DNA of 37,563 nucleotides from IMG/VR virus record IMGVR_UViG_3300029537_000007, one strand, 5' to 3'. The DNA comes from a virus. Position 1 is the first letter of the stretch. Each line of letters starts with the position of its first letter. The position numbers were made by a program, and so were the translations under genes. Below the pieces are notes generated by a model. It was not told the DNA's origin and did no database searches. It was given only the letters and a program-made list of their open reading frames with translations. Below are positions 23,202-23,684 of the stretch, piece after piece.

Positions 23202-23684
23202 ATGTCCAAGATAGAAGGATGTTGCGTAGTGAAATCGACGAATTTGCTCGAAATTGTTCGTAATCAATCTATTTCAATCGAAAATAGTAATTTTTTACCT
23301 GAAAGAGATAATATACCAGTACATTCTTTCAGGGGGTTGATTTTAATCAAAGACCCGCAAAAAGAACTAAATCGGCTAGGAGTATCGCCCAAATTGATTG
23401 GATATTGGGACTTGTTAACAGCCATTGAACTAGTCTTAAAAAACAAATCGGCATTGACCGCTATGATAAAAGAAATCTATATTCCAACAGCAGCCAAAAG
23501 GTGCGTTGAATGGGATTGTCCCGAAGCTTCTATAAGAAAAGCAATCCGCTTGATCTGGCAACGCGGGAATCGGGATTTGTTAGAAAGGATTATGAATCAT
23601 TCCCTACCTGAGCCGCCTCCCGCGGGAGAATTTCTTGGCGCCTTTGCTTTTTACTTAGAAGATGCATCAGAGGAATCCAACTGA
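23202..23684 (+). CDS. Stand-alone Spo0A C-terminal (DNA-binding) domain protein lacking a receiver domain
   Basis: The segment LGVSPKLIGYWDLLTAIELVL...IYIPTAAKR...EASIRKAIRLIWQRGNRDLLERI...PPPAGEFLGAFAFYL parallels the Spo0A_C pattern (KGY.YL..AI, ..[25 protein letters not shown]). Confidence 0.65.
   Translation: MSKIEGCCVVKSTNLLEIVRNQSISIENSNFLPERDNIPVHSFRGLILIKDPQKELNRLGVSPKLIGYWDLLTAIELVLKNKSALTAMIKEIYIPTAAKRCVEWDCPEASIRKAIRLIWQRGNRDLLERIMNHSLPEPPPAGEFLGAFAFYLEDASEESN

Follow-up and report, generated by a model that had tools for sequence, protein, structure and literature searches.

Known and Proposed Phage Functions Acting on Sporulation

Many gut Clostridia owe their persistence and transmission to spore formation, and some phages are equipped to sense, or to interfere with, the entry into sporulation. 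In phage phi29, 0A boxes on the phage DNA sense the host Spo0A, and phage Rap-Phr systems and homologs of sigF and sigG are further examples of such sensing or interference. These systems act via the host Spo0A, Rap phosphatases, or sigma factors, and we know of none among them that encodes a Spo0A-like DNA-binding domain. The gene analyzed here would share their presumed role, but its product is itself a domain of this type.

The question of whether prophages steer sporulation has so far been raised solely from sequence surveys. Effector-only spo0A homologs were described in gut phages from an alignment of 29 virome sequences without genomic anatomy, and a signal-independent control of sporulation was proposed (Schwartz et al., 2023, mBio; PMC10294663), and Jiang et al. 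(2019; PMC6907783) reported an enrichment of the effector domain family (PF08769) in mobile elements from gut Firmicutes. In addition, our protein matches phrog_24603, a PHROGs family without assigned function, at E 4.5e-13, and UniProt/BFVD contains five proteins from gut viromes (98-163 aa) under the name 'Spo0A C terminal', with a fold match to the entry A0A8S5TVN9 (target TM 0.84). These PHROGs and BFVD proteins also consist of a single Spo0A_C domain, but they are only 20-27% identical to ours and come without a study of function or context. Thus, both this kind of gene and the hypothesis of the initial annotation, that a prophage gains a handle on the sporulation or biofilm decisions of its host through it, had already been published. 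A literature search for experimental follow-up of phage effector-only Spo0A genes found none.

Like the homologs of Schwartz et al., the gene described here belongs to a gut Firmicute phage and aligns to the effector domain of Spo0A only, without a receiver. In contrast to those sequences, it is part of a complete temperate genome, lies adjacent to the attachment site, and has conserved boxes in its leader; its recognition helix is unlike that of Spo0A, and its clade includes chromosomal members. What is added to the published picture is the old stand-alone lineage, the recurring att-adjacent slot, and the tandem 0A-like boxes, which are also found in the Faecalibacterium phage Aster. The locus leaves the published concept unchanged and offers a concrete case of it: the temperate genome is complete, the gene beside the att site is defined, three boxes within 50 bp form a candidate operator, and Aster orf27 is a relative in a phage that is cultured and inducible. 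Conserved boxes, conserved slot, and cultured relative together make the published hypothesis directly testable.

Phage Genome and Attachment Site

The window, by which we mean the whole stretch of 37,563 nucleotides that was analyzed, has identical ends of 99 nt (bases 1-99 equal bases 37465-37563) and thus represents a closed circular genome of 37,464 bp. The minus strand encodes the large terminase, the portal, the major head protein, a tail fibre, and an M23-type peptidase/endolysin; the genes for a CI-like HTH repressor, a membrane protein of the MBL fold, and the tyrosine integrase are on the plus strand. The features around the attachment site are as follows.

21775-22890, plus strand: tyrosine integrase with an N-terminal zinc ribbon
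22921-22948, plus strand: perfect sigma-70 consensus promoter TTGACA-16-TATAAT (12/12), between the integrase stop and the P arm
22967-22986, plus strand: 20-mer GTGGCAATAGCWAAATTTTG, second copy, P arm
23017-23063, no strand: hairpin beside the 3' end of the tRNA
23064-23126, minus strand: attP core, the 3' 63 nt of tRNA-Ser(GCU)
23177-23196, plus strand: 20-mer GTGGCAATAGCWAAATTTTG, P' arm copy, overlapping the weak promoter candidates of the Spo0A_C gene

The core was located with integrated copies of the phage. In a virus record (G002), the homology to the window spans the integrase and ends at 23126, and a complete tRNA-Ser(gct) is rebuilt beside int at this breakpoint (G002/L001); in an IMG/VR record (L007), the homology begins at 23064 and runs into a Spo0A_C gene that is 100% identical to that of the window. 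The two breakpoints define 23064-23126 as the att core and place the Spo0A_C gene outermost in the lysogen, at the end opposite the integrase, just as the initial annotation had it when it set this gene beside attP at the very edge of the prophage. Upstream of the prophage end, bases 1-5862 of L007 look mobile-element-like by eye (ParM-like ATPase, cytosine methyltransferase, and RHH-like protein), which suggests tandem elements at the tRNA-Ser site.

The 20-mer GTGGCAATAGCWAAATTTTG has two exact matches against zero expected, flanking the att core on either side, and further half-copies, TGGCAATA, adjoin each of them; the same repeats occur in the related loci L009 and L029. They are probably arm-type integrase sites. 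The hairpin at 23017-23063 is a terminator for minus-strand transcription of the rebuilt tRNA-Ser and may in part also terminate transcription of the plus strand. It lies between the Spo0A_C gene and the consensus promoter at 22921-22948, which faces this gene across attP and is joined to it only in the excised circular genome; the promoter might give rise to an RNA of ~100 nt or to excision-dependent read-through. Between the att core and the start of the gene there are only weak promoter candidates, which overlap the P' arm repeat. A search of 22700-23400 against Rfam gave sub-threshold matches only, lying under the tRNA fragment.

The Spo0A_C gene belongs to a block of cargo genes (23127-25655) that is bounded by attP and by the end of the late operon, where its neighbors are a small RHH-like gene, a membrane protein gene, and a Panacea antitoxin/toxin pair (24503-25613). 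The last is an indel-type cargo cassette, being missing in a relative (L008) that is elsewhere 97-98% identical. The convergent RHH-like gene (68 aa, minus strand) shares 34 nt (23651-23684) with the 3' end of the Spo0A_C gene.

A Stand-Alone Spo0A_C Domain without a Receiver

The gene and the parts of its product are as follows.

23202-23684, plus strand: open reading frame of the stand-alone Spo0A_C protein, 160 aa from ATG 23202
23229, plus strand: alternative start GTG giving 151 aa, with the Shine-Dalgarno sequence AGAAGGA (23213-23219) nine nt upstream
23229-23345, plus strand: N-terminal extension, variable between lineages and disordered in the model, which also holds the 0A-like boxes
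23349-23672, plus strand: six-helix Spo0A_C DNA-binding domain (residues 50-157), from Pfam, AlphaFold2, and Foldseek
Residues 105-121 of the 160-aa protein: recognition helix

The frame of 160 codons is present as the initial annotation described; the GTG start is kept in L009 and L029 and was chosen for P0002 by one gene caller. With 40.0% GC against 50.1% for the genome, the gene is indeed AT-rich, as had been noted. The C-terminal part had been assigned to Spo0A_C from its residue pattern, and hmmscan against Pfam agreed with this assignment: residues 54-151 matched PF08769 over profile positions 3-103 of 104 with E 2.9e-17 and 63 bits, where the gathering score is 25 bits. The Pfam scan of the 160-aa protein gave no further family above cut-off, and the N-terminus was without an above-threshold match. 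In particular, the receiver domain (Response_reg, PF00072) was not matched in this protein, while the canonical Spo0A proteins P0141 and P0159, used as a control, do match it.

Sequence and structure comparisons led to the same domain. Spo0A-C was the sole match of phmmer against the sequences of the PDB (1lq1, E 3e-5; 1fc3, E 1.4e-4). An AlphaFold2 model, built on an alignment of 25 family sequences, showed six helices with a pLDDT of ~97 for residues 50-157, whereas residues 1-49 reached only 44-58, and Foldseek against the PDB returned chains of 1LQ1 and 1FC3 as the only significant matches (target TM 0.77-0.85, identity ~27%), with an rmsd of 1.5-1.8 A across ~100 residues in five of the seven chains. 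The view that the N-terminus is too short for a receiver also holds, as the domain is preceded by 49 disordered residues. We regard it as secure that the gene product is a phage-borne stand-alone Spo0A_C domain without a receiver.

An Old Stand-Alone Lineage

Word-indexed searches found ~25 close relatives with 50-70% identity, mostly called as proteins of 112-118 aa. A profile search of 1.84 billion cluster representatives (clusters at 50% identity) found 6,800 clusters at E<=1e-3, 882 of them at E<=1e-10. Of the best 150 profile matches, most are stand-alone proteins (105-200 aa); the others include proteins with 2-6 tandem Spo0A_C domains, and full-length Spo0A-type proteins rank only at about E 1e-14. 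Our maximum-likelihood tree showed that the query family forms a clade (support 100/95), which branches within a set of further stand-alone lineages, at a large distance from the canonical Spo0A proteins of B. subtilis, Geobacillus stearothermophilus, and G001, a genome that carries a close relative of the phage. The identity to the C-terminal domain of the G001 Spo0A is 30%, and the gene is found in the context of an att site, without the spoIVB-spo0A synteny. A recent truncation of a host spo0A was considered and rejected, given 30% identity to the host-type domain against 50-70% to the stand-alone relatives and the separate clade.

The family is not confined to phages. P0022, 65% identical to the query, is encoded by a stable chromosomal gene (L015-L019), flanked by cardiolipin synthase and aldo-keto reductase genes in at least five samples; it lies ~5.6 kb from the spoIIIA operon in a Clostridia genome, with no phage genes or integrase nearby. 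Among the phages of GenBank, the full-length protein had no match at E 1e-5, and with the domain alone distant matches appear only at E up to 1. A scan of viral contigs found two near-identical copies of the gene only, and a scan of genome contigs with the family alignment gave no confirmed locus.

Divergence of the Recognition Helix

The signature helix with which Spo0A reads the 0A box (15 positions) corresponds to DCPEASIRKAIRLIW in the phage protein, and a longer stretch of 22 residues in B. subtilis Spo0A aligns to VEWDCPEASIRKAIRLIWQRGN. While the full signature is kept in the Spo0A proteins of B. subtilis, G. stearothermophilus, and G001, the phage helix differs from it at 8-9 of the 15 positions: the equivalents of S210, R211, V212, R214, A215, E221, V222, and A223 are changed, and H218 is replaced conservatively by Lys. 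The equivalents of E213, R217, W224, G227, and N228 are kept, and all of these are invariant throughout the family except N228, which is nearly so. The motifs quoted in the initial annotation are thus real, but the recognition helix among them is not canonical.

E213, R214, and R217 are base-contacting residues of Spo0A; in the 2002 work of Zhao et al., Arg214 and Glu213 are reported to contact bases in the 0A box. At the position of Arg214, the phage protein has Ala, and the query subfamily has Ala, Ser, or Val, compared with Arg in 72 and Ala in 5 of 106 other stand-alone representatives. The phage protein belongs to a stand-alone Spo0A_C lineage that is old and very large, its recognition helix is changed, and from this alignment we infer that it would bind DNA in the manner of Spo0A with a modified specificity. 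Since the helix is diverged and the stand-alone clade is deep, its target sequence may differ from that of Spo0A. Both the size of the stand-alone family (6,800 clusters) and the differences that its helix can show warn against reading such genes as a 'truncated spo0A'.

The Att-Adjacent Slot in Related Phages

The att-adjacent edge of a prophage is the classical place for lysogenic-conversion genes in siphoviruses of Firmicutes. The related loci carry the Spo0A_C gene in the following order of features.

L009, L029, L030: the tRNA-Ser core of the window with arm-like repeats, Spo0A_C gene, then a convergent tyrosine integrase
L020: LexA-like repressor, large serine integrase, Spo0A_C gene, then convergent holin and endolysin
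L023: complete tRNA-Asp and tRNA-Thr, hairpin, Spo0A_C gene, then convergent holin and amidase
L025: 3' part of the tRNA-Thr of L023, then the Spo0A_C gene
L026: Spo0A_C gene, then holin and endolysin
L028: Spo0A_C gene, then a Bro/ANT antirepressor

The slot at the att-adjacent prophage edge is conserved across integrase types and att sites, which argues against a directionality factor tied to one integrase. A distant member occupies a comparable place in a cultured, inducible phage: orf27 of Faecalibacterium phage Aster (L031; PP479941.1, 17963-18481), annotated as hypothetical, matches Spo0A_C with 63.6 bits, is 29% identical to our protein, and sits between a tRNA-Ser-like att core and the integrase. 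Aster thus shares with the window the succession of att core, Spo0A_C gene, and integrase, and also the tandem boxes ~100 nt before the domain, but differs in that the boxes are on the opposite strand and the integrase is convergent downstream instead of across attP. The paper on Aster does not mention orf27 (Gulyaeva et al., 2024; PMC11792537).

Conserved 0A-Like Boxes in the Leader

Three boxes resembling the 0A box were found early in the reading frame.

23236-23252, plus strand: tandem 0A-like boxes CGACGAA-TTT-GCTCGAA with 10-bp phasing
23276-23282, plus strand: third 0A-like box AATCGAA, 30 bp downstream of the tandem pair

The pair is the sole occurrence of CGAA-N6-CGAA in the 37.5-kb window. 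Such a tandem spacing of 0A boxes is used by Spo0A at abrB. The 0A box is TGTCGAA, and both its core and its 7+3+7 layout are matched by the leader boxes (PMC3485338). In 11 stretches of 160 nt before the start of the family domain, TCGAAA has 24 matches where the remainder of these loci predicts 0.5, a ~50-fold excess. Seven of 10 loci have the tandem (T)CGAA-N6-(T)CGAA at about -107 to -98 (the window, L009, L029, L026, L028, L023, and L027, the last with three phased boxes); it is the sole match or one of two in most loci and is absent in two. L020 has a pair 11 bp apart, ~150 nt upstream, which includes a perfect TGTCGAA, and Aster has AAACGAA-AAG-TGTCGAA on the opposite strand, ~100 nt before the domain. 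Across the phage genome, 0A boxes are not enriched, with six found against 4.5 expected.

In 9 of 10 loci, the frame upstream of the domain is open; most of these open frames begin at codon -37 to -43, those of L015 and L027 further upstream, and an AAGG-type Shine-Dalgarno sequence precedes this upstream start in the loci inspected. As the boxes lie within the open in-frame extension, their conservation could be partly coding. However, the two boxes of the tandem pair lie in different reading frames, and a pair persists in L020, where the upstream frame is closed, indicating a repeat at the DNA level. The boxes fit a protein, or a controller, that would have 0A-type specificity.

In all of the relatives, a strong Shine-Dalgarno sequence also precedes an internal ATG at the domain start, and long and short forms of the protein may both exist there. 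In the window, the Shine-Dalgarno sequence AGGGGG (23331-23336) is kept and the ATG of the family is TTA (23343-23345), so that an internal start of a short form is excluded here and only the long form, from GTG 23229 or ATG 23202, is expected.

A Probable Spore-Forming Host

The initial annotation presumed a spore-forming host. The genome G001 carries a close relative of the phage, sharing 27% of the sampled 31-letter words of the window and a 98.7% identical stretch of the phage giant gene, together with spoIVB-spo0A, whose product has the canonical signature, and genes for SpoIVA (365 bits), SpoIIGA (115 bits), and an alpha/beta-type SASP (103 bits). A perfect TGTCGAA lies ~110 nt upstream of its spo0A. 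Relatives of the integrase occur at 77% identity in an uncultured Clostridia MAG and at 46% in Allofournierella. Among 31 related genomes, canonical Spo0A is nearly universal and extra weak Spo0A_C copies are sporadic, which fits their carriage on mobile elements.

Functional Interpretation

We hold with moderate confidence that the gene is a 'moron'-type cargo gene of a temperate siphovirus-like phage with a spore-forming host of the Oscillospirales/Clostridia, and that its product would be a phosphorylation-independent binder of 0A-like boxes. Lacking a receiver, the protein would bind DNA without phosphorylation, and it would recognize 0A-like boxes built on a TCGAA core; among these, its own tandem pair (23236-23252) with the third box (23276) is the best candidate. 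These boxes might serve autoregulation or regulation by host Spo0A~P. By this specificity, the protein could also occupy a subset of the host 0A-box promoters in the lysogen and thereby mimic or block Spo0A~P, which would shift the entry into sporulation or other stationary-phase programmes. In the lineage of the window, the long form from GTG 23229 or ATG 23202 would likely be the sole product.

The isolated DNA-binding domain of Spo0A binds genuine targets in the unphosphorylated state, and Spo0A binds its own promoter (PMC3485338). This precedent, the leader boxes, the invariant equivalents of E213 and R217, and the sporulation genes of G001 argue for this reading as a whole, while the changes at 8-9 of the 15 helix positions, the loss of Arg214, the identity of 30%, the lack of enrichment of 0A boxes, and the distant homolog in a Faecalibacterium phage weaken it; the leader boxes could also be sites of host Spo0A rather than of this protein. 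The interpretation given in the initial annotation, a receiver-less effector that binds 0A boxes constitutively or competes with host Spo0A, is upheld in part: the effector domain without a receiver and the outermost position stand, but the diverged recognition helix, with Ala in place of Arg214, speaks against taking the specificity of Spo0A for granted.

It is possible, if doubtful, that the protein is instead a phage-internal regulator with a specificity of its own, acting on its own promoter, on the cassette of the RHH-like and four-TM genes, on the PanAT pair, or in the maintenance of lysogeny, and that the Spo0A regulon is not directly touched. This would agree with the divergence of the recognition helix, with the occurrence of conserved candidate sites solely in the leader of the gene itself, and with the depth of the stand-alone clade, whose thousands of members, tandem multi-domain proteins among them, cannot all be sporulation factors. 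A homolog is moreover present in a phage of Faecalibacterium, a genus that is not known to sporulate, and the role may thus not be sporulation as such. However, the candidate sites resemble the 0A box in their core and keep the 10-bp tandem spacing, the tandem motif has no further copies near other phage promoters in the window, and the 65% identical P0022 is encoded by a stable chromosomal gene outside any phage.

An extension of the preferred reading, which we put forward tentatively and consider rather unlikely, is that the att-adjacent Spo0A_C gene and its tandem 0A-like operator form a conserved module, which would sense Spo0A~P and feed back on the Spo0A regulon with a relaxed specificity (TCGAA core, G2 dispensable, matching the loss of Arg214). 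If this were true, prophages of gut Clostridia would gain a switch over the sporulation or stationary-phase entry of their hosts, and the module may be active even in hosts that have ceased to sporulate.

It is decidedly unlikely that the gene chiefly responds to host Spo0A~P bound at the tandem boxes, coupled to the onset of stationary phase, with a product that is dominant-negative by protein contacts (for example, mixed inactive assemblies with the Spo0A effector domain or titration of RNA polymerase contacts). The boxes do have the tandem spacing of Spo0A sites, TGTCGAA is also found upstream of the host-type spo0A of G001, and helices E and F are kept in the AlphaFold2 model. Against this, our alignment shows that residues differ in the helix corresponding to the sigma-A-activating region of Spo0A, and the invariant Glu and Arg of the recognition helix would be left unexplained.

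It is very improbable that the protein is a recombination directionality factor, excisionase-like and bending DNA at an att arm, as its constant att-adjacent position and the overlap of the gene start with the P' arm repeat might suggest, since family members also occur beside the large serine integrase of L020, a class that uses a different type of directionality factor, and far from any integrase in the chromosome (L015-L019), and since the arm repeats are not TCGAA-like. No recombination directionality factor is known to have the Spo0A_C fold. With the family found alongside tyrosine and serine integrases and in a chromosome lacking an integrase, we judged an excisionase role unlikely.

Several relatives are much larger proteins, with architectures that are new to our knowledge. 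P0028, P0033, P0062, and P0052 (439-1003 aa) carry 3-6 Spo0A_C domains in tandem, and one of the four adds Sigma70_r4 and three RNA polymerase alpha-CTD domains.
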